IMG/VR virus record: IMGVR_UViG_3300027911_000028
From: a virus
Strand: one strand, 5' to 3'
Length of the DNA stretch: 41,726 bases
The notes beneath the pieces are model-generated. The model was not told where the DNA came from, searched no databases, and saw nothing but the letters and a program-made list of their open reading frames with translations. The position numbers and the translations under genes are program-made. Position 1 is the stretch's first letter. Every line of letters begins with the position of its first letter. Positions 3,313-34,162 of the stretch are shown here, one piece after another.

Positions 3313-4032
3313 TTAGTTGTCCCTCACCAAAATTGATTCGTATCCGATGGTCGTGATCCGCGCCAGGCGTGGACCCTTCACTTCCTTGAATATGTAGACA
3401 CACTTCCCCTTGTTGACGGGAAACTTGAACCTACCGGAATCCTGGGCGGGCAACTCGCACCCTCGATCTGGGCTCACCATGACCGGAACCGGGAAGTCGA
3501 TCGTCTGGTACAGGCCGGACCTCGATTGGCAGGCCTCGACCCCGACGAAGTCACGGGACGCCCCGTTGCATCCGATCTTCCCCGGCAACGTCATGTCCTT
3601 CGTCACGAAGTCGACGAACGCCCAGGAGTGCCTCCCGGCCTTATCGAATCCGGAGAGCTCGAGCGGGCATGCGATGCCGTCCTCGATGCCGACGACCGGC
3701 TTGTAACTGAACGTCGCCTCGCGGGTTGAGTCCACCTTCTTCGATCCCCAGCCGAACAATCCATCAGGGACCGTCGTCTGTACGTTCCACGCGGATTCCT
3801 TGGTCGTCTCCCGATGGCAGGTCGACATCACGAACAGGTTGAGGTCCCCGCGCGCGATGATGTGGAACTGGTTAACGTCCAACATCGGAGCGACACCGAC
3901 GCCCTCGAACGTGACCCCGTTCACGGTCACGATCATGTCGCGCTTGTAGAGCGTGTTCGGATCGAGCTGCTGGGATGGCTCCGTCACCAATGACGAGCAC
4001 CCGGCGAGGAAGATAATGAAAAGTCTAATCAT
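3313..4032 (-). CDS. Cys-rich lipoprotein of unknown function, 239 aa
   Basis: ATG 4032 sits 7 nt after AGGAGG. MIRLFIIFLAGCSS has an LAGC lipobox. Six further Cys residues occur in the mature part. No recognisable domain. Confidence 0.7.
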   Translation of the reverse strand: MIRLFIIFLAGCSSLVTEPSQQLDPNTLYKRDMIVTVNGVTFEGVGVAPMLDVNQFHIIARGDLNLFVMSTCHRETTKESAWNVQTTVPDGLFGWGSKKVDSTREATFSYKPVVGIEDGIACPLELSGFDKAGRHSWAFVDFVTKDMTLPGKIGCNGASRDFVGVEACQSRSGLYQTIDFPVPVMVSPDRGCELPAQDSGRFKFPVNKGKCVYIFKEVKGPRLARITTIGYESILVRDN

Positions 4033-4043
4033 GAATTGACCTC

Positions 4044-4076
4044 CTGAAAAGACGAAAGGAGGGTCTCCCCTCCTCC
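4044..4076 (-). terminator. Intrinsic-terminator-like hairpin inside the lysis cassette
   Basis: The minus-strand RNA reads AGGAGGG-GAGA-CCCUCCU (7-bp GC-rich stem, tetraloop; 4074 to 4057), followed by UUCGUCUUUUC (4056 to 4046). Confidence 0.45.
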
Positions 4077-4111
4077 GCCTAAAACAACTTCGTTGGAGAA
4101 ACAAAAAACCT

Positions 4112-4408
4112 TTACTTGGGAGGCTGCACGTTGTTCGCCACGCCGATCAGCTTGTTCGTCAGGTCACCCAAAAAAGAGAGGATGGCGCCGAACCCAGCGA
4201 AGGCGTATTGAACTGGAATCAAAACGGACAATGGCTTCGCGGTCGGGACCGCGCGCAGGATCAACTCGAACACCACGAGGATGCTCGCGACTGTCCCTCC
4301 GCTGAGGCCGATCGCCTTCAGGGCGCTGTCGAGATACGTCGGTGGTGCGGTCTGAGCGAACACCGTCATCGTGAAAAGTACCAACATGATCGCCGTGAGT
4401 GTCTTCAT
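4112..4408 (-). CDS. Membrane protein with three hydrophobic segments, 98 aa; holin candidate
   Basis: MKTLTAIMLVLFTMTVFAQ, plus two further hydrophobic stretches (VASILVVFELIL and YAFAGFGAILSFL). ATGA overlap with the upstream gene. Confidence 0.6.
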   Translation of the reverse strand: MKTLTAIMLVLFTMTVFAQTAPPTYLDSALKAIGLSGGTVASILVVFELILRAVPTAKPLSVLIPVQYAFAGFGAILSFLGDLTNKLIGVANNVQPPK

Positions 4409-4749
4409 TTGTGACCCTTTCCGTAGATCTCTTGCTTGGCCTCGACCCTGGCGAAGCTCTGCAAGAGCGTTTGTATGTCTGCCTTGATCCCATCAATCTT
4501 CGACCAGAGAGTCAAGTCGTGGTCTTTTTGCCTCGCCTTGAACTCGACCAGATCCTTCTCCATGGCCTTGATCTTGTGGATCTCCTCGATCTCGAGGAGG
4601 AAGCCCTTGTTCTCCTTCTCGAGCGCGTCGAGGCGCGCCTTCATCCTTTCCTCTGATCTCGCCATGTAGATGAGAAAAATTATCATCTGTAGGCAGAACT
4701 CTGCGATCAGTGGAGACATGTCCTTGAGCAGTTGAATGAATGAATCCAT
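4405..4749 (-). CDS. N-terminally anchored coiled-coil protein, 114 aa (i-spanin-like topology)
   Basis: ATG 4749 follows GGGGGA. It has a hydrophobic segment (SPLIAEFCLQMIIFLIYMA) then a heptad-rich charged region. Only the last 114 codons of the 433-aa track ORF look coding. Confidence 0.6.
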   Translation of the reverse strand: MDSFIQLLKDMSPLIAEFCLQMIIFLIYMARSEERMKARLDALEKENKGFLLEIEEIHKIKAMEKDLVEFKARQKDHDLTLWSKIDGIKADIQTLLQSFARVEAKQEIYGKGHK

Positions 4750-4757
4750 CGGTCCCC

Positions 4758-5732
4758 CTAGGTTTTGATGATCCAATTCATGATCATCGATGGTTGCATG
4801 TTCTGGTGCGTCCCGCCGGATCCAGTCGATTGATTCGTCGCGACCGTCGATTGGTTCGTCGCCGTCGCCACCTGGTTCGTCGCCGTCGTCACGTTGTTCG
4901 TCGCGGTAGATGAGTTCACGCTGATGTTCGTCACGGCCGTCTGCGTCCCGTAGACGAATGAGCCGACGGAGATTGATCCGTACGGATTCGTGCCCGTGTT
5001 GCCGTTGCCGTTGAAAAATGTGATCGAGTGGGAGTGCCCTGGGTCGGTGATCCCGTGTGAGTGAGCGTTCTGTGAATGCGTATGCGCGTCCTGCGTGTGA
5101 TTGTGCGCATCTTGTGTGTGCGTATGAGCGTCCTGAACGTGCGTATGAGAGGGCATCTGTGAGGTATTGATCGCGACGGATTGAGATCCGCCCGAGGCGC
5201 CGAGCGTGGTCCCGGTGATCCCAGACTCCGAGTTCGTCACCCGACCGGCGGTCGTCCCGCCCATATTGTCGAGTCCTGCCACAGTCCTGCCCCTGAGGTC
5301 GGGCAAGTTGAACGTCGTCGAACCATCGCCGGATCCGTATGTGGTCCCGATCGCGAGGAACAACGCTGAGTAGGTCGTACGACTCACCTCCTGCCCATAG
5401 CAGAGCAGGAAGAGGCTCGGAGCCGTTGTCCCAGCGAACGGGATCGTGCATCCGGCAGGGAGGAACGACGCGAACAGCGCATTGATGTTCGCGAGCATGT
5501 TCGCCGAAATGCCGTCGTCTAAGACGTCGACCCCGAGGCGGTCGCTCATCGCCTGGGCGAACTGAGATACCACGGCGGCCGATTGCCTCAACGCCTTGTT
5601 GTTGAGCGCTGAGGATGCGATCCCAGGTTGCTGCCCGAGGGTCCTCCCAGTCGTAACGAGATAGGTCGATTGTTCGACTAAGTTCGTCCCAGTGTCCGTC
5701 GGACAAAACGTGAGGAAGTCATTCGTTGGCAT
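4758..5732 (-). CDS. Tail fibre with a phage tail-collar domain and a His-x-His repeat array, 324 aa
   Basis: LLCYGQEVSRTTYSALFLAIGTTYGSGDGSTTFNLPDLRGR is a collar-domain signature. Also present are an HTHVQDAHTHTQDAHNHTQDAHTHSQNAHSH array and a C-terminal GGTHQNMQPSMIMNWII. Confidence 0.85.
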   Translation of the reverse strand: MPTNDFLTFCPTDTGTNLVEQSTYLVTTGRTLGQQPGIASSALNNKALRQSAAVVSQFAQAMSDRLGVDVLDDGISANMLANINALFASFLPAGCTIPFAGTTAPSLFLLCYGQEVSRTTYSALFLAIGTTYGSGDGSTTFNLPDLRGRTVAGLDNMGGTTAGRVTNSESGITGTTLGASGGSQSVAINTSQMPSHTHVQDAHTHTQDAHNHTQDAHTHSQNAHSHGITDPGHSHSITFFNGNGNTGTNPYGSISVGSFVYGTQTAVTNISVNSSTATNNVTTATNQVATATNQSTVATNQSTGSGGTHQNMQPSMIMNWIIKT

Positions 5733-8082: not shown

Positions 8083-9242
8083 GTGACGATGATAGTGACA
8101 TCCGATGCCGGGTCACAAGTCGGAAGATGATCGAACGCGGTCGAAATGTTGGATGTCCCTCCGTTCACCGTCATCGCGGTGATGTCGAAGGTCCCCGCTG
8201 CCGGCGTGCCGAACACGTAGGCAGGGACGAAGATCTTGGTATAGAGAACGTTGTTCCCGATCCCGATCGAATTGATGTACGAGGCGACCGACTGCTGGAT
8301 GATGGTCTCGTAGTCAGACGACCATCCGACCGTCGCGGCGATCGTGATCACGACCGAGATCGTGTCGAGCGTCGGCCTCTGGAACCTGATCGTCAGCGGC
8401 ATCCCGTGCGCATCGTAGACGAGTTGTGAAGTGCTCCCATAGGTGTTGGTTCCCGGAGTCTTGTGGACCTGGATCGCCTGGCAGATGTCGGAGATTGTCC
8501 CTCCCTCCACGACCATACAGATCGAGTGCGGAGTTATGCCGTTGCCGTCCGTCGAGTCCGAATCATTCTCGTATCCGCGAGATTGAGTGACTCCGGCGAC
8601 GTTGGCGACCGCACCTTTAGTCCCGTCGAACACAGTCAGGGATGGGTTCGCGGTAGACATCGACTGACGGATTCTGAGCTGCGCATCCGATTCGACGGCG
8701 ACTCCGACGGTGGCCGCCGCGGCGTTGTTCACGCTCTGCCATCCGAGGGTCGGAGTGAATATCCCGGTGATCGTGTTCGCAGCGGCCGACACGGCCCCAG
8801 CGACAGCCGCGGTCGCAGTGACGACGATCGATCCACCACTCGGGAACGTGGTCCCATCTGGGATGATCCACTTCTGTTGGAGGCTGTCGATCGCGACGGC
8901 CCTGTTCAGAGTCACTCCGCTCTGCCCGATGAGAGTGAGGTCCGCAGTCGAGAAGGTCGGGTCCTGCCTGGTCAATCCATTGAGCTTCACGCCCCTCGAA
9001 AGGCCGACGCCCTGGGCACCAAGTGGAGACAATGAGTTGTATGAAGCGAGTCCGTTCATGCCCGCATCGTAGAGGCCCTTCGCCAGGATCGCGAGCCATT
9101 CACCGTCCTGGGAGTCTGGACCGAGGTACACATCAGCCCCGTAAATGCCCTGGAACGAGCTCGTGATGTAGGCCAACACGGTCGGATAGTCTGATGTGTG
9201 ATATCCGTTTTGATCGATATAAAATAGATCTGAATAGCTCAT
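8079..9242 (-). CDS. Baseplate J-like protein, 387 aa
   Basis: Size, position between the W-like and I-like genes, and the N-terminal IYGADVYLGPDSQDGEWLAILA pattern of gpJ / Mu gp47-type proteins. Confidence 0.75.
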   Translation of the reverse strand: MSYSDLFYIDQNGYHTSDYPTVLAYITSSFQGIYGADVYLGPDSQDGEWLAILAKGLYDAGMNGLASYNSLSPLGAQGVGLSRGVKLNGLTRQDPTFSTADLTLIGQSGVTLNRAVAIDSLQQKWIIPDGTTFPSGGSIVVTATAAVAGAVSAAANTITGIFTPTLGWQSVNNAAAATVGVAVESDAQLRIRQSMSTANPSLTVFDGTKGAVANVAGVTQSRGYENDSDSTDGNGITPHSICMVVEGGTISDICQAIQVHKTPGTNTYGSTSQLVYDAHGMPLTIRFQRPTLDTISVVITIAATVGWSSDYETIIQQSVASYINSIGIGNNVLYTKIFVPAYVFGTPAAGTFDITAMTVNGGTSNISTAFDHLPTCDPASDVTIIVT

Positions 9243-9604
9243 GTGTTCACCTGGTTTTGGAGTTGGATTGTGGTCTGACCATAGAGGGTGTCGATCGTCG
9301 TCGTCACGCTGATCTGCCTGGTGTCTGGGTCGATCGTGCTCGTGTAGTCGACGATGCCGGTCACGCCCTGGGCACTCAGGATCCTATCCTGGATTGTTCT
9401 GTCCGCGAGCTGCTTCGAGTGGAACCCGAAGATGGATTGGAAGAATGGGGTCCCGGTCGTGAGATCGAGGAACCACTCACCGAGGAATAGTTGAAAAACC
9501 GTGCTCGCGACCTGGCCAGGTCCGGCGGGAACATCCTTGTAGAAGTCGAGCTGTGAGTTGCCGAAAGAGTAGTCACCGCTCGCGGTTTGCTTCCTGACTC
9601 TCAA
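9239..9604 (-). CDS. Baseplate wedge protein, gpW/gp25-like, 121 aa
   Basis: TTG 9604 sits after AAGGAGGAAAC. Size and position between the spike and J genes fit. Carries a FLGEWFLDLTTG motif. Confidence 0.6.
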   Translation of the reverse strand: MRVRKQTASGDYSFGNSQLDFYKDVPAGPGQVASTVFQLFLGEWFLDLTTGTPFFQSIFGFHSKQLADRTIQDRILSAQGVTGIVDYTSTIDPDTRQISVTTTIDTLYGQTTIQLQNQVNT

Positions 9605-24618: not shown

Positions 24619-26070
24619 TTATGGATAGTACTCTTCCGAAGCGATATTGTCCGCCTTTGGCGATGGAGGCGGCTCCTCAGTTTGAATCGGTGGAGGCTCC
24701 TGCTCGGCCTCCTGGATCTCCTCATCCGTGATGTTCGTGAACATACCGGTCTCCGCTCCTTGGTCCTTAAGTTCCTTCACAGCCGTCCCAGTCGTGATCA
24801 GGCCGGCGTCGTGCGCACCGATGATCGTCTCGGTGTTCGATTTCACGACAGCTGCGCGATCCATCGCAGACATCTGCCACAATGGCACGAACGTGAACTT
24901 GAGATCTTTCGGTGGCTTCGTCCCGAACGTCGACATCCAAAGGACCTTAAAGATCTTGTCGAGTCCGAGCCTGAGCTTCGCGTTCTGCTGTGCTGAGATA
25001 TAGTCGTAGTACATCCTGATATCGGACTCACCGGTTGCGTTCATGCCAGCGGGAGATTGTCCAAACAATCGCACCAATGGGATGTTCGCGGCCCCGGAGA
25101 GCTGCTGCCCGAATTGAATCAGGAGATCTGATAGCCCAGTGAATGTGTAGTTGGAAGTCGAGAACTCATCTTTTGAATCAAGGATGGTGAGTCCCTCGTT
25201 AGTCTGGAACTGCCTCATCATGCTGAATTGAGCCTTGAGCCCGTCCATCGCCTTTCCGCCCATGGCGACGATCTCTCGCAGGTTCTCGATCTTCACAGTG
25301 CGATTGTTCGCCCGCTCGATCAAATTCGCGGAGCTCATCGTCGAGTCATCGAACGCTATCAATCGGTCCCACATGCGTTCGAGGATCGATTCTCCCCAGA
25401 GCATCTCGGTGATCGCCTGGAAAAATGGGAGCTCGATGCCGATGTTCCTGATCACACGTGAGTGATGGACAGTGAGGAATCCGGATGCGAATGCAGCTTC
25501 TTGGCCTGCCTGATTTCCGGGAGTCGTCGTCTGAGCGGTCGTCACGATCTGGTAGTATTCGGGCAATCCTATCTCTGGTCCATCCTTGATGATCTTGTCG
25601 ACCAATGGGTTCAGCTGCCAACGATCATAGACCGCGAGCCCGGTGAATTGATCCTTCCTGATGCGGTTGATGTTGAGTGGTGTGTCCAGCGCCTGCCCAT
25701 CGATCTGAAGGACAGCGATCGCACCGCCGTAGAGTCGCCCCCATTTGATCAGTGAGCAGAGAGATGTCCAGATCCCGGTCTGGACGACGGCCGCGTCGAA
25801 ATCGGCAATGTCCTCCTCGGCCTCATTCGTGCTGACCGTGGCCCCGGCGCGAGTCATATCCTCGGCCACGCAGTCCACGACTTGACCGACGATCCACGAA
25901 CCTCGATAGGCGGCCTCGAGCTGGACTCGGTTCCTCGTCACATAGTTGAACGCATACAGTCCGGCCGAGAGGGTGTTGTCGTTGTTCAGTCCGACCTTCG
26001 ACACGAAGTTGTCGTATCCGTCGAAGACCATCGTTCTCTCGTCGAACACCTTCCGCGCTTCCACCTTCAT
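24619..26070 (-). CDS. Portal protein, DUF1073-type, 483 aa
   Basis: Directly after terL. FDGYDNFVSKVG...LEAAYRGSWIVGQVVDCVAEDMTRAG is the typical DUF1073 portal N-terminus, with an acidic C-terminal tail. Confidence 0.85.
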   Translation of the reverse strand: MKVEARKVFDERTMVFDGYDNFVSKVGLNNDNTLSAGLYAFNYVTRNRVQLEAAYRGSWIVGQVVDCVAEDMTRAGATVSTNEAEEDIADFDAAVVQTGIWTSLCSLIKWGRLYGGAIAVLQIDGQALDTPLNINRIRKDQFTGLAVYDRWQLNPLVDKIIKDGPEIGLPEYYQIVTTAQTTTPGNQAGQEAAFASGFLTVHHSRVIRNIGIELPFFQAITEMLWGESILERMWDRLIAFDDSTMSSANLIERANNRTVKIENLREIVAMGGKAMDGLKAQFSMMRQFQTNEGLTILDSKDEFSTSNYTFTGLSDLLIQFGQQLSGAANIPLVRLFGQSPAGMNATGESDIRMYYDYISAQQNAKLRLGLDKIFKVLWMSTFGTKPPKDLKFTFVPLWQMSAMDRAAVVKSNTETIIGAHDAGLITTGTAVKELKDQGAETGMFTNITDEEIQEAEQEPPPIQTEEPPPSPKADNIASEEYYP

Positions 26071-26071
26071 C

Positions 26072-27655
26072 TCAACCTCCGAGTGATTCCCAAACCTTCA
26101 TCTTGTTCTGAGTAGACAACATGTCCTCGATCGCGTCCAACATCGGATCCACCTGGTCGTCGTGCGCATGCGTCATGTCCGCCTTGAAGGCTTCGCACTC
26201 GGCTATCAGGTCATTCGTGAATTCAGCGTCCTCGGGGACGCAGACGGCCTTCATTTCGATGTATGGTAACGCGTCTTGGACTCGAGTGTACTTGTCTTTG
26301 TTTCGTTCAATACCTTTGATCGGGATGATCGGAGTCTCAGACTTCAGGGATTGGATAACGTCCGTGCCTGATGACTTGTCCTCGACCTTCATCTCACGCA
26401 ACTGACCGAGTCCGAGCCCGGCCTCCCAGTCTACCGCGTGATGCTTGTTCCAGAAGGCGCGCGCTCTCCTCCGGAGCTCCGGCGACTCCCATTTCCCCCT
26501 GATCATATCGATCAAGTAGATACGACCATCGGCGCCGTATCCCCAGCATTCGAACACCGAGAAGTCATTGTGCTCCTTGGTCTTCTGTGCCGTGTCCGCA
26601 TATATCTTCCTGTACTTGATCGCCGGAAGCATTTTGTACCTGACGAAGTCCTGCCCCTTGATCACGTTGCCGCCCATGGCGACTGGGCTCTGCTGGTACT
26701 GTGAAGTGAACACGTGCTTCGAGATCATGTTCCCGGTTTTGTCGGTGATCCCGCCTTGCTCCATCTGGACGAGCTTCGTCACGGGTTCCTTCTCCTCCCA
26801 GTACGAGAAGCGCCCATCCTTGTCCTGGATGTCCATGTTCAACTTCGGGCGATACTCCCAGGGGATGAACTTATGGATCGCCTCCATGCTTATCAGCGCG
26901 GGGATCTTCACGAAGTGCCATTTTCCGGGCAGTCCGCCAGCCTCGATGAATCCAACCGGATCCATCTCCGCGATCCTTTGCATGATGATGACGACCGGTG
27001 TGTCGGGCCTCGCTCGTCGGGATTCGACAGTCGTCAAAAGCCTGCGATTGGCCTGCTCGAGCTTGAGCTTAGAGAATGCGTCCTCCGGCTTCAGCGGGTC
27101 ATCGATAATGATCGCCCCATTGAACCCCGGCTCCATGTGCCCGGCACGGAACCCGGTGACTTGACCAGACAATGATGTTGCATAGACGCCGCCGGCCCTC
27201 TTTCCGTCCTCAGTGACGACGTTCCATCGCTTCTTCGACTTCGTGTCGCCAGCGATCCTCAGCGGCCATAAAGCCTGAAACTCCTCGCTCGAGACGATGT
27301 CTTTAGCTATCTGTGAGTTGAGCAGGGCCAGTTGATCCGAATATGACAGATGGAAGAACCGCGCCCTCGGGTTCAACGCCAATCCGCGGGCGATCAGGTT
27401 GATGACGACGAGCTCAGTCTTGGATGAACCGGGTGCGACGTTGATCACCACGTTCTGGAGCTCTCCACCGATCACTCGGTCGATGACCTCTGAGATATAT
27501 TCGTGATGCCAATTGCAGATGAACTTCGACCCGGTCCTCATTTTGTAGAAGTACCGGGTGAAAAATAGGTGTGATCTGGTACAATTCCGCTTCGCAGCGG
27601 CGAGATAATATTCGTCCATAGCGCATCTTGCCCATAAAATATTTTCAAGGGCCAC
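26072..27655 (-). CDS. terL: Terminase large subunit, 527 aa
   Basis: Walker A-like NVAPGSSKT, Walker B-like IIIDDP, and a C-terminal nuclease region with VEDKSSG and AHDDQVD motifs. The start is uncertain (GTG 27655 or ATG 27619). Confidence 0.9.
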
Positions 27656-27674
27656 GGATGGCCCCCATTTTTGT

Positions 27675-28073
27675 TTACTGTGCTGCTGGTGCTGCGGGAG
27701 CTGGATCGACAGGAGCTGCCGGAGCCGCCGGTGCGACCGTCCCGAGGATCAATGCCTTGATCTGATCGAGGGATGCCTGAACTGCGGTCACTCTGTCTTT
27801 CAATGCCTGGACTGAATTCGCCTCCATCGTCTCCTTCGCTGTCTCAGCGTCGAGAGCCGCTTGCAGTGTTGCCAGATCGGACTGAGCCTTGGCCTGTGCA
27901 GCTGCGAGGTCAGCGGCGTCCTGCGCGATCTTCGCGTTCAGTGCCGAAACGTCGGGCACAACGACCGAAGCTGCTCCGGCATCGAAACACGCGCCGAGCG
28001 CTGATTCGAGGGCTTGAACTTCAGCATCTTGTACGGACTTCAATTGAGTTGCTACAACATCTTCCTTAGCCAT
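27675..28073 (-). CDS. Ala-rich coiled-coil protein with a Pro/Ala tail, 132 aa, between terS and terL
   Basis: ATG 28073 sits 6 nt after GAGGAGG. The frame stays open upstream to ATG 28199, which overlaps the terS stop by 8 nt, so a 174-aa form cannot be excluded. Confidence 0.6.
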
Positions 28074-28191
28074 GTGGCCTCCTCTGTTTCGTTTACGATA
28101 GGGCCGCGAGCGCTCATAGTAAATACTATATTCGGGGACGGTCCAGAAGTTCACATACTCGATCAATTGAAAAAAGAAGCGCTCGAGGTCC

Positions 28192-28818
28192 TTAAACATC
28201 CTCCTCCAGCTTCTGCATCGCGATCGCCACTCGTTGTTCGAACGAAACTGCTTCCTTCGTCTCAGGTGCCTTGTTGTCAAACGTGAGGACCGGGTCGGTG
28301 ATCATGTTAACGTTCAGCGAGTCCTGCCGTCTCCATGATCTCGGGATCCTCCTGCTCAATCGCTCCATCGCGGCCCTCCAATCGGACTTGATCTCCGACT
28401 GCTGGATGACTGGGTTTCCCTCGGAGTTGAGCACAGGCTCCATCAATGGCTTGCCTGGGCTCTCGAATATGACCTTCCCCTCGTGGTCGACGACGGGCTT
28501 CATCAAGAATTTCGCTGGTCGTCCCATCGCGTGGGCATCGAGTACGCTGATGTCGCGCATCTCGTACTCGCTCAAGGCTTTATGCAGCTTCGCTAGAAAT
28601 GCGGCGTGCGGCGACTCTGGGTCCTCCTTCGCCTTGATCACCCACATCCTCACTGTATCATACGATATGCCCGCAAAAGCGGCAGCAGTCTCTACTGGAG
28701 CGCCGATCTTTATGGCGTTCAGGATCTTGTCTTCGATCGTCGGGTCGAGCTCGAGCATCGGCAGACGCCCTGATCCTTTGAATCTTCTATGTCGAGGGTT
28801 CTTGAGTTTACCGCCCAC
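28192..28818 (-). CDS. terS: Terminase small subunit, 208 aa
   Basis: N-terminal HTH pattern ILNAIKIGAPVETAAAFAGISYDTVRMW. Position upstream of terL. GTG start sits after AGGAG. Confidence 0.7.
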   Translation of the reverse strand: MGGKLKNPRHRRFKGSGRLPMLELDPTIEDKILNAIKIGAPVETAAAFAGISYDTVRMWVIKAKEDPESPHAAFLAKLHKALSEYEMRDISVLDAHAMGRPAKFLMKPVVDHEGKVIFESPGKPLMEPVLNSEGNPVIQQSEIKSDWRAAMERLSRRIPRSWRRQDSLNVNMITDPVLTFDNKAPETKEAVSFEQRVAIAMQKLEEDV

Positions 28819-28842
28819 TTCTTGGTGCTCCTATGCCTTATC

Positions 28843-29055
28843 TTAAGGCAGACGTCGGACCTTTACATCCCTCTTCGCTTTAATCGCGACCTTCACCTGA
28901 CGGAATGCGATCTCATTCACGTGGATCGCTGAGTCTCCAACCATCAGGATGTCGCCGACCTTCAGCTTTTGGACGAGATAGCCTCGTTCATCATCTGGGC
29001 TCTGATCTGATCTACCGTTCTTGGGGTCATCGGGGTTATCCGGATGATCGTGCAT
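28843..29055 (-). CDS. CsrA-like RNA-binding protein with a 25-aa acidic N-terminal extension, 70 aa
   Basis: Residues 26-70 (YLVQKLKVGDILMVGDSAIHVNEIAFRQVKVAIKAKRDVKVRRLP) align by eye with E. coli CsrA [46 protein letters not shown]. AAGGA lies 6 nt upstream of the ATG. Confidence 0.6.
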   Translation of the reverse strand: MHDHPDNPDDPKNGRSDQSPDDERGYLVQKLKVGDILMVGDSAIHVNEIAFRQVKVAIKAKRDVKVRRLP

Positions 29056-29531
29056 TCTTGTTCCTTCTTGGTTGTTGATACCTTCTCAGAAGATGAGGCG
29101 AAATAATGGACGTCGTCAAGCTCCAGGACCATCTTGAGGGCATCCAGGCATGGCTTCAGCCGGTTGTCGGCGTCGGGAGCATTCTCATGGTTCAAGCGTT
29201 CCACGTGGAACACGAACCAGCAATCGACCCTGAGCGCGAATTTCTCTCCCGATGCGTTCTGTGCATTTCGATGATCGTGCAGCGACGCCTTCATCCTCGA
29301 GACGGCCTCGTTGTTCATGAGGGCCCACTGGAGGCACCTTTGCACGTACTGCTTCGATTCCTTCGTCTTGACCATCCTGCCTTGACGATATGGCTTCCCC
29401 TTGGATGTGAACTTCACCTTGCCGGCGATCGGCATAAGTGACTTGTTGACGGTCGGAGGTAGAGGGAATCCGTTGAGCCAGAATGTTAGGTCCATGATTT
29501 GATCATGCGCAGTGTATGCGTGAGGAGTCAA
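28962..29531 (-). CDS. rusA: RusA-like Holliday junction resolvase
   Basis: PLPPTVNK near the N-terminus, DADNRLKPCLDALK...ELDDVHYF (the RusA catalytic Asp cluster) and a terminal CTIIRITP strand. The start is TTG 29531 (TTGA overlap) or ATG 29495. Confidence 0.75.
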   Translation of the reverse strand: MTPHAYTAHDQIMDLTFWLNGFPLPPTVNKSLMPIAGKVKFTSKGKPYRQGRMVKTKESKQYVQRCLQWALMNNEAVSRMKASLHDHRNAQNASGEKFALRVDCWFVFHVERLNHENAPDADNRLKPCLDALKMVLELDDVHYFASSSEKVSTTKKEQECTIIRITPMTPRTVDQIRAQMMNEAISSKS

Positions 29532-30296: not shown

Positions 30297-30480
30297 GGTC
30301 CGGGTCCCTTTCGAACCCCCTGACCAATTTACAGATCTCGCATTTGGTCTCGGTCTTCCATGCGATGTACTCTTGCCAAGTGTCGAACGAAGCGATGCCG
30401 ACCTCTGATTCGTACTTGTAAAGGGCGTAAAGCCTGGTCTTGTTCTTGATCCTTGGCTGCACTTTATGTCGCGAGGTCAT
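30277..30480 (-). CDS. Hypothetical protein, 67 aa; resembles the N-terminal half of an endonuclease VII-type HNH
   Basis: LYALYKYE...CEICKLVRGFERDPDHGRTYG stops where the second half of the motif would be expected. Confidence 0.45.
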   Translation of the reverse strand: MTSRHKVQPRIKNKTRLYALYKYESEVGIASFDTWQEYIAWKTETKCEICKLVRGFERDPDHGRTYG

Positions 30481-31135
30481 TGATCACATCCTCCATGGAC
30501 TCCTTCGGAGGAGTCACGTCTTTCTCAAATGCTTCCATGACATCCTCGTGGTACGCAACCCCATTTAATGCCGATGCATAGTTTGACCTCAGGGCCCTGG
30601 CCCGAGCCTTGTGCATGAGCATGTCCTTCGTGTATTTCTCCCAAGTCGGGTTCGACAGGAGGCCAGCCTTCCTCGCGTCATCAATGGTGAACACGTACTC
30701 GTTTGATATTTGTGAGCCCTTTTTGTTGACGATACAGACCGCCGCCCATGCAGCCTTGTGCAAGTTCTTGTTTGTTGAGCAGATCACTTCTTGCTCTTCG
30801 TCCAGGAAGAACTCCCGCTTGTCCCCATATTGTGGATGCCTCTCTGCCAGAGCGGTCACGAGGGATCCGAACTGTGTGAGCTTCCCCTTCACCCACGCCA
30901 TCTCACCCATCGCCTTGTCTGGGAGGCCGAACTGGCGACAGAACAGCATCGCCGCCGCGACGGCCTCGACCCCTTCCTTCCTTAAGTGCTCCGGGGCCAT
31001 CTTCAACTTCATCATCAAATTCGCTGCGCGTGACAACTCAGTGTGGTCGCTGAACATCAAGTCTCCATGGGACCCGATGCCGATCGGCTTCACTGTCACT
31101 GTCTTCACTTCTTCTTTCGCCTCTTGTTCGCTCAT
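30464..31135 (-). CDS. recT: Single-strand annealing protein, RecT/Redbeta superfamily, 223 aa
   Basis: FGLPDKAMGEMAWVKGKL...FTIDDARKAGLLSNPTWEKYTKDMLMHKARARALR is the typical C-terminal SSAP motif. Paired by ATGA overlap with an exonuclease gene. Confidence 0.65.
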   Translation of the reverse strand: MSEQEAKEEVKTVTVKPIGIGSHGDLMFSDHTELSRAANLMMKLKMAPEHLRKEGVEAVAAAMLFCRQFGLPDKAMGEMAWVKGKLTQFGSLVTALAERHPQYGDKREFFLDEEQEVICSTNKNLHKAAWAAVCIVNKKGSQISNEYVFTIDDARKAGLLSNPTWEKYTKDMLMHKARARALRSNYASALNGVAYHEDVMEAFEKDVTPPKESMEDVINDLAT

Positions 31136-32040
31136 AGCTCTATATCCTCTCTCTCAACTGAATTTCTGATGAACCACTCCGGCACATGTCCAGGCTGGAT
31201 CGATTGTTGTCTCATCGGCCAGTGATTATGATCGACCGCATGCCTGATCTTCTTCAGGGTCGCATGGTAGTCCGTCTCCGCCTGCTGGAGCTGGATTCGG
31301 TTGTACGAGTACACGGCGACCTCGTACGGCCAAACCTTTTCGACCGCGAGGATGATGATCCTTCGCGGGAACTTGCCTGTGATCGCCTCGATTCCTTTCG
31401 CGTACATCAACAATTGGATGTCGATCCTCATCTCGCCGAAGACCTGCTTCCCGAAAGCGAACTGCTCGCATGACTTCGTCGTCTTCAAATCTATGAAGAC
31501 CGACCCGTCCTCGCGTCGGAGGTCCGGCTTTATTTTGCATCTGATGCCTGTCTCATTATCCAAAAAGAATCCTGGGACCTCCGGGACCATAGCCCTGAGC
31601 ACATCCTTGCCCTGCGGGTGCTGCATGATCGACTCGGCGATCCCGGTCATCATCTCGAGCTCGTCCTGCGTGACCACCACGCAATCCTTCGGGAGGTCGG
31701 AGAGCCATAGCGCGCGCTTCTCGTTGGCCTCCTTTGATCTCGTCGACACCTCTCCCTTTTGAGTCAGCCCGGTGAACTCCGGCATGACCCTGTGAGTGTG
31801 CATGAACCTCTCGCGCTCGAGCACTGCCATGTGGATCTTGCTACCGAGCTTCATCGCTGGCGATGCCTCGATCTTTTTTCCCTGGATGACGATGCCATGG
31901 AACAGTTTGAGTGAGCTCATGGCGGCCCTGACGCTCGATGAACCTATCGCCGTCGTGTCCGCATGGTATTCCTCATCCGACATCTCTGGGCTCCAGCAAT
32001 CGAAAAAAAATCCAGAAGACGGTATGAAATTCGGGGTCAT
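31132..32040 (-). CDS. PD-(D/E)XK exonuclease, RecE C-terminal / PDDEXK_1-type, 302 aa
   Basis: EYHADTTAIGSSSVRAA, GSKIHMAVLE, FIDLKTTKS (the D-x-K motif) and QLLMYAKG. Confidence 0.7.
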   Translation of the reverse strand: MTPNFIPSSGFFFDCWSPEMSDEEYHADTTAIGSSSVRAAMSSLKLFHGIVIQGKKIEASPAMKLGSKIHMAVLERERFMHTHRVMPEFTGLTQKGEVSTRSKEANEKRALWLSDLPKDCVVVTQDELEMMTGIAESIMQHPQGKDVLRAMVPEVPGFFLDNETGIRCKIKPDLRREDGSVFIDLKTTKSCEQFAFGKQVFGEMRIDIQLLMYAKGIEAITGKFPRRIIILAVEKVWPYEVAVYSYNRIQLQQAETDYHATLKKIRHAVDHNHWPMRQQSIQPGHVPEWFIRNSVEREDIEL

Positions 32041-32306
32041 TGGTGATCCCCTGTGCTGACGTACTCCATGAACTTTATTTGGGCCTCTGAGTGTGCCTGG
32101 ACGTAGAACCTGAGGCTCGCCATCAGGCGATCGATCCGCTCCTGCTGCTGGATGTACCTCTTCGAGAGATGCTGTAAATCATATTCCCGGATCTCGCACC
32201 TATCGCACTTGTGGGCGTTCGGGTCGATGTATTCTCCGCCCTTTGGGCCAGTAGACTCATACTTGATGCCATTTTTTTTGCACCATTCTTTGGCTTCTTG
32301 ATACAT
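32037..32306 (-). CDS. Hypothetical protein, 89 aa
   Basis: AAGGAG lies upstream of ATG 32306. Contains HKCDRCEIREY (CxxC). Confidence 0.55.
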   Translation of the reverse strand: MYQEAKEWCKKNGIKYESTGPKGGEYIDPNAHKCDRCEIREYDLQHLSKRYIQQQERIDRLMASLRFYVQAHSEAQIKFMEYVSTGDHQ

Positions 32307-32423
32307 GCTGACTCTCCTTCTTGGTTGGCTATTTTTTATTTTAAAAATAGGTCGATGTATACAATAAAAAATTCTGATTTTTTGAGCTTTTGAAAGTTCA
32401 AATATATGAATTCACTCGTCACT

Positions 32424-32457
32424 AGATAGAACTAGTGATTTCAATAGATAGAACTAG
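32424..32457. repeat. Two copies of TAGATAGAACTAG spaced 21 bp apart (operator-like), the first inside the palindrome CACTAG-N6-CTAGTG
   Basis: Read directly: copies at 32424-32436 and 32445-32457, in the AT-rich intergenic gap 32307-32460. Confidence 0.6.
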
Positions 32458-32460
32458 CGC

Positions 32461-32703
32461 TCATTTGAGCGCATCCCGTGCGGTATCGATATAATATTGA
32501 GCTTCTTGATGAGCAAAATTAAAATTCGAATTATTTTCGTCTTCAAAAGCAATTTTTCGCAAAGCCTCTTCGAGCTTTTTGATACGTTCATTCGCAGCGT
32601 CGAGGTGTTTCTTTTCAACAACGTGAACAATAGATTCATAAGCCATTGGTTCAAAATCAAAAAGATGACTAGCATAGGTCCACCATTCTTTCACCTCACT
32701 CAT
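32461..32703 (-). CDS. Hypothetical protein, 80 aa, AT-rich gene
   Basis: ORF MSEVKEWWTY... with a central helical EKKHLDAANERIKKLEEALRK. Composition is far below the genome average. Confidence 0.5.
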   Translation of the reverse strand: MSEVKEWWTYASHLFDFEPMAYESIVHVVEKKHLDAANERIKKLEEALRKIAFEDENNSNFNFAHQEAQYYIDTARDALK

Positions 32704-32862
32704 CCGCGCCCCCTTCCTCTAAAGCCAAATAAATCAATTTCTCAATTTTTTCCATTCCACAGTTGCACTCATTGTCTTCATAAGATGAATTAGCACAGTC
32801 CTCATAATGATTGAGTCCGTGACTCTGAATTCTTTGTAAAAGTCATTTCCTCGAGCATCTTG

Positions 32863-32997
32863 TCAAAAAAATTCTCGTTTAGACAATTCAGTCATTGTAT
32901 TCCTTTTTGTTTCGGAATTGTAAAAAATCAAAAAGACAAAAACCACCAAAATGAAAAACGCCACAATATAAAAAATAGTGTTTTGGGTTTCATTCAT
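32863..32997 (-). CDS. Tiny single-pass membrane protein, 44 aa, below the track threshold
   Basis: My own translation is MNETQNTIFYIVAFFILVVFVFLIFYNSETKRNTMTELSKREFF. Confidence 0.4.
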   Translation of the reverse strand: MNETQNTIFYIVAFFILVVFVFLIFYNSETKRNTMTELSKREFF

Positions 32998-33006
32998 TGG
33001 CCCACC

Positions 33007-33133
33007 TCACTTTCGATCGCTTCTTTCAGTGTCATTTTCTTTCTCCTCAGCTGGTGGGTTAAAAACCAAAAATATGAACAAGACGACGATCAAAAAAGCG
33101 ACGATATAAAAAAATCACGTCCTCATTCTTCAT
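33007..33133 (-). pseudogene. Paralog of the 44-aa membrane ORF, interrupted by a +1 frameshift in a T7 run (A7 at 33108-33114 on the plus strand)
   Basis: Removing one T gives MKNEDVIFYIVAFLIVVLFIFLVFNPPAEEKENDTERSDRK (41 aa), which parallels the neighbouring ORF (IFYIVAF core). As written, the frame ends after 24 codons. Confidence 0.4.
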
Positions 33134-33305
33134 TGCTCGCTTTTTCCAATCGCAACGTCGATTCCTTCAGCGTCTGATAGTCGTCGAAGATGACCTCATC
33201 GATCGTAAATCTCTTGAACTCATCGAACTCGCTCGGGCGGATCCAGCGGTCATCCCCTGACCTTTTGTACGGCAGCCCGCTCAACAAGGCTTCACGGAGG
33301 GTCAT
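33123..33305 (-). CDS. Hypothetical protein, 60 aa, with a weak DUF2829-like end pattern
   Basis: MTLREALLSGLPYKRSGDDRW at the N-terminus and FTIDEVIFDDYQ near the C-terminus. Pattern-level only. Confidence 0.5.
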   Translation of the reverse strand: MTLREALLSGLPYKRSGDDRWIRPSEFDEFKRFTIDEVIFDDYQTLKESTLRLEKASNEE

Positions 33306-33658
33306 CTCCAGACCTCGACAATGGACTTGTGGTCGTTCTCAGCTGGCGCCGACTTCGTGAGGCCATTCGGGAGCTTCTTCACGACCGACTCGATGGTCTT
33401 CCCCTTCGCGATCACGTCGCGCATTTCTTGCCCCACTTGCTTCCTGATCACGTACTGGCCAGGGAAGTCTGATGGGTCCTTGAACACCACGAAACAAACC
33501 GGCAGGTGATCACGATCAGTGAACCTGATCTCGCTCGTCGGGACCTTCACCACTTGGCCCTCGAACGTTTCTACCATAGCGACGAGACCCGCCTTCAGCT
33601 GGAAGTACCCGACGAAGTACCCTTTGCTTCTCCCGTTGTTGAACTCCACTGTCCTCAT
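33302..33658 (-). CDS. Hypothetical protein, 118 aa
   Basis: ATG 33658 sits 4 nt after GGGAGG. No motif. Confidence 0.65.
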   Translation of the reverse strand: MRTVEFNNGRSKGYFVGYFQLKAGLVAMVETFEGQVVKVPTSEIRFTDRDHLPVCFVVFKDPSDFPGQYVIRKQVGQEMRDVIAKGKTIESVVKKLPNGLTKSAPAENDHKSIVEVWR

Positions 33659-33767
33659 TGTTCCTCCCGATCATCAGCCATAGGGCGATGAGCAATAAAT
33701 TTGTTGTGATCGCGATGACTGACAACAGTCCGATCGCGATGTCTATCTTCTTTGGTACCATGTTCAT
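33516..33767 (-). CDS. Possible small membrane ORF overlapping the next gene out of frame
   Basis: ATGA overlap with the upstream stop. MNMVPKKIDIAIGLLSVIAITTNLLLIALWLMI is a clean TM segment, but the last ~45 codons are Arg/Gly-rich and overlap 33302-33658 by 143 nt. Confidence 0.3.
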   Translation of the reverse strand: MNMVPKKIDIAIGLLSVIAITTNLLLIALWLMIGRNNEDSGVQQREKQRVLRRVLPAEGGSRRYGRNVRGPSGEGPDERDQVH

Positions 33768-34162
33768 TCACCGAGAAGGGCGAGGATCAACTTCACCCTT
33801 TTTTCGGCACTAAGTTTCATCGCGAGTATCTCAAAAACATTCTCAAATAGTTCATCAAGTACAGCTCTTTCATGAGCTCGATCTGTCCAATCTTTCGGCT
33901 TCGGTTGATCAGCTTTTTTTTGTCTTTCTAATGTGACGACCTTTTTCTTTGATTTGTTCGGCCTGTTACATTTTTTTTGAATCCTATAGCCCATCTTGAT
34001 CATGAATTTCGACATGTCCACTTCGCGGATCGGTGATCCATTTAGTTTCACAAAATCAGGGAAGTGATGCTCGACGATGTCCTTGTACGACATCCCGTTT
34101 TGATTGAGCTCTTTGATCTTGTCAAAATGCCTCGGCTGTAGGGTCTTCTGTTCTTCGTTCAT
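33764..34162 (-). CDS. Hypothetical Lys-rich protein, 132 aa, possibly HTH
   Basis: ATGA overlap with the ATPase gene. IKELNQNGMSYKDIVEHH is HTH-like, and the centre is basic (KKCNRPNKSKKKVV). Confidence 0.55.
   Translation of the reverse strand: MNEEQKTLQPRHFDKIKELNQNGMSYKDIVEHHFPDFVKLNGSPIREVDMSKFMIKMGYRIQKKCNRPNKSKKKVVTLERQKKADQPKPKDWTDRAHERAVLDELFENVFEILAMKLSAEKRVKLILALLGE

Follow-up and report, generated by a model that had tools for sequence, protein, structure and literature searches.

Which protein is encoded by the short ORF that lies immediately ahead of the terminase genes in this viral DNA, and what might a phage use it for at that place? The window, that is, the whole stretch of DNA analyzed (41,726 nucleotides), approximates a phage genome of ~42 kb with a G+C content of ~56% and nearly all of its genes on the minus strand. 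Along this strand, the gene order begins with ParB/methyltransferase genes, an anti-repressor, an SbcC-like gene, a PD-(D/E)XK exonuclease and RecT, continues with small ORFs, a RusA-like gene, the 70-aa ORF under study (hereafter csrA-like) and terS, and ends with an Ala-rich ORF with no assigned function, terL and the portal gene (Table 1). The csrA-like gene is located at the boundary of the recombination and packaging modules. The initial annotation had described it as the last gene before the terminase genes, which is correct since terS, terL and the portal gene follow, and the AAGGA Shine-Dalgarno (SD) sequence with 6-nt spacing that it had reported was also found. The product of the 70 codons, MHDHPDNPDDPKNGRSDQSPDDERGYLVQKLKVGDILMVGDSAIHVNEIAFRQVKVAIKAKRDVKVRRLP, begins with MHDHPDNPDD and ends with VKVRRLP. 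The product of the upstream gene was assigned as RusA-like from its match to Pfam RusA (23.0 bits, cutoff 22.8) and to phrog_140, and the motif DADNRLKP is conserved in it. An Rfam scan of the window gave no match, hence no CsrB/RsmZ-like decoy RNA belonging to a known family, and tRNA genes were likewise absent.

Table 1. Location of the csrA-like gene, its parts and its neighbors in the window.
Feature	Position	Strand	Details
csrA-like ORF, 70 aa	28843..29055	minus	stop TAA 28845..28843; from the ORF list and the sequence
SD of csrA-like, AAGGA	29066..29062	minus	6-nt spacer to ATG 29055..29053; embedded in rusA-like codons K-[DE]
CsrA-homologous beta-core, residues 25-70	28846..28983	minus	beta1-beta5, R68 = CsrA R44, without C-terminal helix; HMMER, hhalign, AF2
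csrA-like/rusA-like overlap, 94 nt	28962..29055	minus	csrA-like residues 1-31 over the rusA-like 3' tail
rusA-like Holliday-junction resolvase gene	28962..29531	minus	likely ATG at 29495; conserved C-terminal tail PRTxxxI/V
Palindrome/hairpin TGCCTTA-AGA-TAAGGCA, perfect 7-3-7	28834..28850	minus	straddles the csrA-like stop codon, directly 5' of the terS SD
terS translation initiation region	28816..28832	minus	AGGAG 28832..28828, 9-nt spacer, GTG 28818..28816
terS, small terminase subunit	28192..28818	minus	phrog_4102, E 3e-17
terL, large terminase subunit	26072..27655	minus	phrog_38, E 3e-97; Pfam Terminase_6C
Portal gene	24619..26070	minus	after terL
PD-(D/E)XK exonuclease	31132..32040	minus	upstream of RecT
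RecT	30464..31135	minus	between the exonuclease and the small ORFs

The resemblance to CsrA had initially been noticed by eye, and the comparison with the Pfam CsrA profile (PF02599) supported it in part: a match was obtained with an E-value of 6.3e-4 (residues 28-68 on model positions 3-44 of 53), but the 20.1 bits reached by the window protein alone are below the gathering score of 27 bits. The match to phrog_9500 (E 0.018, 16.1 bits) covered model positions 7-44 of 65 only and not the full length including the helix, while E. coli CsrA scored 120 bits on the same model. Against the PDB sequences, CsrA/Rsm chains were found at E 0.06-0.2, the sole other match being the archaeal Pbp11 (E 1). 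Therefore, taken as a single sequence, the similarity of the window protein to CsrA appears marginal. In the HMMER alignments, residues 25/28-68 corresponded to CsrA residues 1/3-44 and R68 was placed on R44 of CsrA, the equivalence already proposed for this arginine. A match to DUF977 (E 0.021) was set aside, being below threshold and absent from the relatives.

A word-indexed homology search with the single protein returned only itself, so an exhaustive HMMER search, covering 1.84 billion representatives, was needed to find its relatives. Eighteen were obtained, of which 17 are proteins of 66-77 aa with a common architecture, and the remaining one, P0015, has 173 aa and carries two canonical CsrA domains in tandem. 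Two alignments were used, A2 without P0015 (18 members, the family profile) and A1 with it (19 sequences). All of the 19 sequences of A1 matched PF02599 at E <= 0.1, and several relatives (P0007, P0013, P0016, P0018, P0020, and P0021) carry a precomputed match to this family. When A2 was compared with the PDB sequences, only CsrA/RsmE/RsmN/RsmF chains were detected, with a best E-value of 6e-7. Moreover, hhalign aligned A2 with a canonical CsrA alignment (A4, E. coli CsrA plus four phage CsrAs) with 95.7% probability and an E-value of 8.9e-9 over 44 columns, L27-P70 corresponding to CsrA 2-46. At the family level, the profiles thus indicate a similarity well beyond chance; the initial assignment to CsrA is borne out there, and these comparisons support a remote homology to the CsrA beta-core. 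The csrA-like ORF is very probably a real gene encoding a CsrA-fold homologue.

The AF2 monomer model built with the 18-sequence alignment predicted five strands (residues 24-31, 36-39, 42-45, 54-61, and 66-69) and no helix, with pLDDT values of 71-87 in the core and below 50 in the N-terminal 20 residues. These strands coincide with the aligned strands of CsrA, beta1 to beta5 in the CsrA order, at the positions that we take the latter to occupy. No counterpart of the C-terminal alpha-helix (CsrA residues ~45-58) was observed in the alignments or in the model, either in the window protein or across the family; the window protein lacks it because it terminates at P70, two residues past the equivalent of R44. 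The description of the homologous region as almost the whole CsrA fold consequently holds for the five strands and was overstated with regard to the helix. In CsrA, the five-strand core forms an interleaved homodimer, and the first residues of the helix after beta5 help to hold the RNA. A Foldseek search of the PDB with the monomer model detected no CsrA chain, as expected because a CsrA-type chain folds only as a dimer, and such a monomer search is uninformative for an intertwined dimer. The best match in BFVD, a weak one (E 0.02), was an uncharacterised 164-aa protein of a marine virus.

The positions equivalent to those which we take to be the RNA contacts of CsrA/RsmE (L2/L4 and R6/R7 on beta1; V40, V42, and R44 on beta5) were inspected in the family alignment. 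The equivalent of L2 (L27) is invariant, that of L4 is mainly hydrophobic, that of R6 is hydrophobic throughout the family, and that of R7 is K or R in most of the members. On beta5, the equivalent of V42 (I/V66) is nearly invariant, and the equivalent of R44 (R68) is R in 10 and K in 6 of the 18 sequences, thus basic in 16/18, with L and T occurring once each. The RNA-contact positions therefore seem to be partly kept.

A feature missing from the initial annotation is an overlap with the upstream gene over the first 94 nt of the ORF, the ATG at 29055 being located 94 nt inside the 3' part of the RusA-like ORF. An overlap of 91-124 nt was observed in every overlapping locus (L001, L004, L005/6, L117/8, L119, L120, L121/2, L127-9, L130, L135, L136, and L138, of which L135, L136, and L138 are IMG/VR loci). 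The start codon, ATG or GTG across the loci, falls within the RusA codons E/R-C (GA-ATG-C), and AAGGA was found at equal spacing in 11 of the 12 overlapping loci displayed, the exception being L138 with TAGGG. When eight distinct loci were compared over a block of 78 nt without gaps, the nucleotide entropy at RusA codon positions 1/2/3 was 0.74/0.65/1.24, a pattern that indicates purifying selection on the RusA frame within the overlap; variability is lowest at RusA position 2, which is the third position in the csrA-like frame. The mean pairwise identity was 47% for the RusA tail versus 27% for the CsrA-like extension. Beyond the RusA stop codon, the signature switches to that of normal coding in the csrA-like frame, and the core outside the overlap showed codon-position entropies of 1.14/0.77/1.61 (positions 1/2/3), which is a coding pattern.

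The N-terminal extension without a CsrA counterpart that was noted initially, 25 residues, acidic and Pro-rich, is indeed present. It appears, however, to be mostly a by-product of the overlap, overprinted on rusA-like and consisting chiefly of the RusA tail PRT..E.. read in the -1 frame, and not an independent functional add-on, because it is the RusA frame that is selected and because the relatives with no rusA-like overlap (P0007, P0020, and P0021) have extensions of only 8-17 residues. Additionally, a scan of the overlap for -1 slippery heptamers found none conserved, and the ATG is retained in L127 although the RusA residue changes there from E to R; for these two reasons, independent initiation seems far more likely than a frameshift fusion. 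In the public gene calls, the rusA-like ORF was dropped in L005, L119, and L121 and replaced by a spurious antisense ORF in L127 and L130. The csrA-like and rusA-like genes thus form a conserved dual-coding overlap that is systematically miscalled in public annotation.

The csrA-like ORF was found to be conserved in ~13 distinct metagenomic phage contigs. The order rusA-like, csrA-like, terS, terL, portal is present in the window and in L001, L004, L005, L117, L119, L120, L121, L127, L130, L135, L136, and L138, and csrA-like adjoins a phrog_4102 terS in all of the 13 main-family contexts. The two genes overlap by 4 nt in L130 and are elsewhere separated by up to 37 nt (3 nt in L135; the terS start is ambiguous in L136). 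Among the more distant relatives, placement before packaging genes was also observed with two further types of terminase module: P0022 is encoded one gene upstream of a phrog_51/Terminase_2 terS, and P0021, in an HK97-type module, follows an HNH gene and is one gene ahead of terL (phrog_2). The exception is P0007, with ParB-like and queuine-tRNA-ribosyltransferase-like genes as neighbors. The early/late boundary proposed initially for this phage gene can accordingly be specified as the recombination/packaging boundary, a position conserved in the ~13 contigs and extended by the two further terminase lineages.

By means of TerL, relatives were also collected from 80 IMG/VR and 30 genome loci, including Acinetobacter prophages (~50% identity) and a Nitrospirota-binned contig (64%); they carry other terS types, and the csrA-like gene was present in none of these loci. 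The gene tracks the rusA-like/terS (phrog_4102) pair and not terL. In L137 (IMG/VR), rusA-like with its tail runs straight into terS and there is no csrA-like gene; hence, the gene is accessory or dispensable for that phage type.

The leader of terS was then considered as a candidate RNA target. In L001, L004, L121, and L136, the SD of terS lies in GAUGAGGAWCAUC, a 5-bp hairpin whose loop contains GGA (GAUGAGGAACAUC in L121 or L136), and analogous hairpins were observed in L117 and L138, giving a total of 4-6 of the 13 loci. GGA in a hairpin loop is the classical architecture of CsrA/RsmE sites. This hairpin is absent in the window itself and in about half of the loci, so the signal may be regarded as suggestive but not general. 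In the window, the terS leader contains the perfect palindrome across the csrA-like stop codon, followed by UAGGAG. A stop-straddling hairpin comparable to this one was found in 6 of the 8 loci tested, with modest z-scores; the palindrome itself is not conserved in L001, L004, L127, L130, and L135.

A genome-wide scan for GGA-loop hairpins at gene starts detected ~2 per kb, mainly at internal in-frame starts. The search of phage leaders for GGA-in-hairpin sites put forward in the initial annotation was consequently non-discriminating, and such hairpins, common as they are throughout the genome, are unusable as evidence for a regulon. A consensus scan for promoters and terminators around the gene gave 7 versus 4.2 +/- 2.0 and 9 versus 6.1 +/- 2.6, values within ~1.5 SD of the shuffled mean, and it detected no terminator between csrA-like and terS.

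We propose that the gene encodes a phage-specific, divergent CsrA-fold protein that tunes or times the translation of the terminase, an explanation which, as a whole, falls slightly short of an even chance. The csrA-like protein would be translated from its own SD and ATG and, since both sit within the 3' end of rusA-like, it would be the final product to be synthesized from the recombination (early/middle) block. By analogy with CsrA, its five-strand, helix-less core would form a homodimer, and this dimer would bind GGA-containing sites at translation initiation regions. That the protein is an RNA-binding post-transcriptional regulator seems, on this analogy, rather likely. The leader of the adjacent packaging/late gene terS would be the likeliest target because the position of csrA-like directly upstream of terS is fixed, and its own AAGGA SD might be a second one; the outcome would be a terminase whose translation is tuned or timed. 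The placement before packaging genes hints at a control of late-gene translation. Even so, the designation of the terS/late leader as the main target is tentative and somewhat doubtful. A more elaborate version, in which a phage-intrinsic switch gates the terminase through binding of the helix-less dimer to the terS SD hairpin (and maybe to its own SD) and was recruited independently before the packaging/head genes of several unrelated lineages, is considered unlikely. The lineages concerned in this version are those with the phrog_4102 terS, the phrog_51 terS, the HK97-type terL and the Bcep22 major head gene.

Alternatively, the protein might be an accessory for host takeover, a mimic of the host CsrA/RsmA that retunes the Csr regulon (metabolism, motility, CRISPR-Cas-type defence) and not the late genes. 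Host takeover is the general proposal for phage and plasmid csrA (PMC7366521; PMC8450108, cited in PMC11879866; plasmid RsmQ, PMC9928087), and the dispensability of the gene in L137 is what would be expected of an accessory gene. In the sole functional test found, that is, the dCas13d knockdown of the csrA homologue gp28 in phage PTXU04, a reduction in plaque size was the only effect (PMC11879866). By contrast, the csrA-like core is ~32% identical to canonical CsrA, has no helix and differs at the R6 position, all of which makes the mimicry of a host protein doubtful, and it is encoded near packaging genes in three terminase module types versus the early regions occupied by the canonical phage csrA genes examined. 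This reading is, in our opinion, rather improbable.

The CsrA fold could also have been put to some other use in packaging or in the virion, for example by interacting with TerS, by binding DNA at the palindrome or as a minor component of the particle. Genes of this kind lie inside packaging-morphogenesis modules or at their head, as in the window and in Bcep22-like phages, where the portal and major head protein genes flank the gene, and the CsrA-like gp47 of JC1 was detected in purified virions (PMC9144972), although by a single peptide and for a member of a different family (phrog_8397). The loss of the helix, the relaxed RNA-contact positions of the family and the perfect 7-3-7 palindrome beside terS would also fit; against this, beta1 and beta5 have kept their basic residues, and the palindrome is not conserved in the five loci named above. 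Moreover, we know of no CsrA-fold protein that binds DNA or a terminase, and such a role is regarded as clearly unlikely. Finally, the reading that there is no independently initiated gene, but only a by-product of the conserved RusA tail or a RusA fusion made by -1 frameshifting, is highly improbable and appears largely refuted, since, although the first 31 codons lie in the -1 frame relative to rusA-like and under RusA-frame constraint, the 44-codon core beyond the overlap has its third codon position most and its second least variable and shows significant homology to CsrA, the SD keeps a fixed spacing, the start codon survives the RusA change in L127, the overlap holds no conserved slippery heptamer, and the core is still encoded in P0007, P0020, and P0021, where there is no rusA-like overlap.

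To return to the preferred explanation, a divergent CsrA-fold regulator of terminase translation, its interest lies in the fact that phage csrA genes have been catalogued since 2020 with a mechanism demonstrated for none of them, host manipulation being the usual assumption. In at least three terminase lineages, the present family is linked to the point where the packaging operon begins, and it is reduced to the beta-core. If the translation of terS/late genes were regulated by it, no CsrA-type regulator before it would have had a phage target dedicated to it, and it would show a minimal CsrA fold that still works.

Phage CsrA-like proteins are a class already known, of which the window family is an unannotated variant; what is new here is the helix-less core, the conserved dual-coding overlap with rusA-like and the repeated occurrence at the front of packaging modules. 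None of the three PHROG CsrA families (9500, 5527, and 8397) includes the window protein, its tblastn search against 50,697 deposited phage records gave no match, and neither did a megablast of the 7 kb around the gene against deposited phages. With no representative in PHROGs v4 or in these 50,697 genomes, the family is currently invisible to annotation. No paper linking a CsrA-like gene to terS was found in the literature.

With canonical CsrA/RsmA/RsmE (E. coli CsrA; P. fluorescens RsmE; PDB 1y00 and 2jpp), the window protein shares a homologous five-strand core (residues 27-70 = CsrA 2-46), keeping the motif VG-x-x-L-x-[IV]-GD, the A-x-[KR] of beta4-beta5 and the Arg at R44. Unlike these proteins, it has no helix, a hydrophobic residue at the R6 position and a 25-residue acidic extension, and it is encoded by a phage gene next to the terminase. 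Among phage regulators, T4 RegA binds RNA and represses translation at initiation regions in the course of the early-to-late transition; it provides a functional analogy only, its fold and recognition sequence being unrelated to those of the window protein.

CsrA-family genes on phage genomes, as here, are also represented by the canonical csrA of phages (RsmM-type of Pseudomonas phages F116 and phi297; Vibrio phages; gp28 of E. coli phage PTXU04; phrog_9500/5527). Unlike the window protein, their products retain the helix and share 55-65% identity with E. coli CsrA. Canonical CsrA was detected in 88 of the 50,697 deposited phage records, and in the four records inspected the gene is located in early regions near a repressor, an exonuclease or RecT, away from the terminase. 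A catalogue of 2020 listed csrA alleles in 30 of 2517 phages (PMC7366521). These genes have been proposed to encode post-transcriptional regulators, mechanistic data being essentially lacking (PMC7366521; PMC11879866). In Bcep22-like phages, a CsrA-like gene has been annotated inside the head module (PMC9144972). The novelty claimed in the initial annotation, where no characterised system of this kind was known at such a position, therefore does not extend to phage csrA as such, which was already known (PMC7366521, and the 88 records), nor to its presence in a head module (PMC9144972).

The closest known system is that of Bcep22 gp54 and JC1 gp47 (Burkholderia, phrog_8397, "CsrA-like regulator"), phage-encoded proteins of ~64 aa with a CsrA beta-core, like the window family. 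The window protein itself had no match to phrog_8397 at E <= 10, and the relatives P0013, P0020, and P0022 matched it weakly (E 1.7e-5 to 4e-3). The Bcep22-type gene lies in the late/head module, after the portal gene and directly upstream of a major late gene, that of the major head protein, whereas the window gene precedes terS. Unlike the window gene, the Bcep22-type gene has no rusA-like overlap, and its product has no N-terminal extension but a 19-residue C-terminal tail. Nevertheless, Bcep22 gp54 was the best profile match to the window family (hhalign 97%, E 1.2e-10, ungapped), and both have in common a beta2-beta3 turn shorter by one residue and an R-x-P ending after beta5. The window family and phrog_8397 are thus best viewed, from these profile comparisons, as related but separate families.

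The RusA-like resolvase encoded upstream of the csrA-like gene carries, past the usual RusA end, a conserved tail of about 20–25 aa (PRTLxEIKxxM...), both in the window and in related phage contigs (L005, L119, L121, L127, and L130). The tail is also retained in a natural variant, the IMG/VR relative L137 (IMGVR_UViG_3300005690_000028, 3977..5196), where the rusA-like gene directly overlaps terS (ATGA) with no csrA-like gene in between. In public assemblies the rusA-like ORF was left uncalled or was replaced by an antisense ORF call, apparently because it shares a long stretch with the csrA-like gene on the same strand.

No rusA-like gene lies upstream of the distant csrA-like relative P0022 (L131 332..592, GCA_040384245.1). 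This protein retains a 35-aa acidic extension (MDQDPKDD..PKDG) resembling that of the window protein, MHDHPDNPDDPKNG, and the +1 frame at this extension reads TPRM..QM, possibly a relic of a RusA tail left by recombination. Another relative, P0015 (173 aa), contains two near-identical canonical CsrA domains, duplicated in tandem within one chain, and could be a covalently linked “single-chain dimer.” The top structural match in BFVD to the predicted monomer, A0A0F7LAB4 (164 aa), is similar in length to P0015 and may be a protein of this type.

Coordinates of features in the window and in related phage loci (L-numbers)
Feature	Location	Strand	Remark
rusA-like resolvase gene	window 28962..29531	-	conserved C-terminal tail
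rusA-like resolvase gene, related loci	L005 7555..8103; L119 7558..8094; L121 7588..8106; L127 7483..8100; L130 7609..8124		
Perfect palindrome TGCCTTA-AGA-TAAGGCA	window 28834..28850	-	spans csrA-like stop codon
terS Shine-Dalgarno hairpin	L001 ~355-375; L004 ~612-628; L121 ~8238-8254; L136 ~4685-4700		
Ala-rich, coiled-coil-like ORF	window 27675..28280	-	between terS and terL; no family match
G+C-rich hairpin and T-run	window 27646..27667		junction of Ala-rich ORF and terL
Two ORFs	window 32497..32793; 32860..33177	+	inside low-G+C region
123-aa gene	L005 12671..13042; L006 6673..7044		just 3' of portal gene in related phage

As listed, the Ala-rich ORF overlaps the 3' end of terS by 89 nt at its 5' end; its true start is probably an internal ATG (MAKEDVV...). 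Farther along the window, positions 32001..34000 have a G+C content of 44%, compared with about 53–60% elsewhere, with few long minus-strand ORFs and several promoter-like matches. This stretch may have a regulatory or switch function, or it may be an insert that was acquired recently. The 123-aa gene gave a weak Pfam match to Acb2/Tad1-hairpin, and on this basis its product is a possible anti-CBASS/Thoeris sponge.

The palindrome at the csrA-like stop codon ends 1 nt 5' of the terS Shine-Dalgarno sequence. It lacks a U-tract and was therefore rejected as an intrinsic terminator. Similar stop-straddling hairpins of differing sequence occur in L005, L117, L119, L120, and L121; none was present at the csrA-like stop of L001, L004, L127, L130, or L135. 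In L001, L004, L121, and L136, the Shine-Dalgarno sequence of terS lies in a conserved 5-bp hairpin, GAUGAGGA(A/U)CAUC, with GGA in the loop. In Bcep22, the leader of the major head gene, 3' of the CsrA-like gp54, reads CAUGAGGCACAUC (L140 ~9448-9460).
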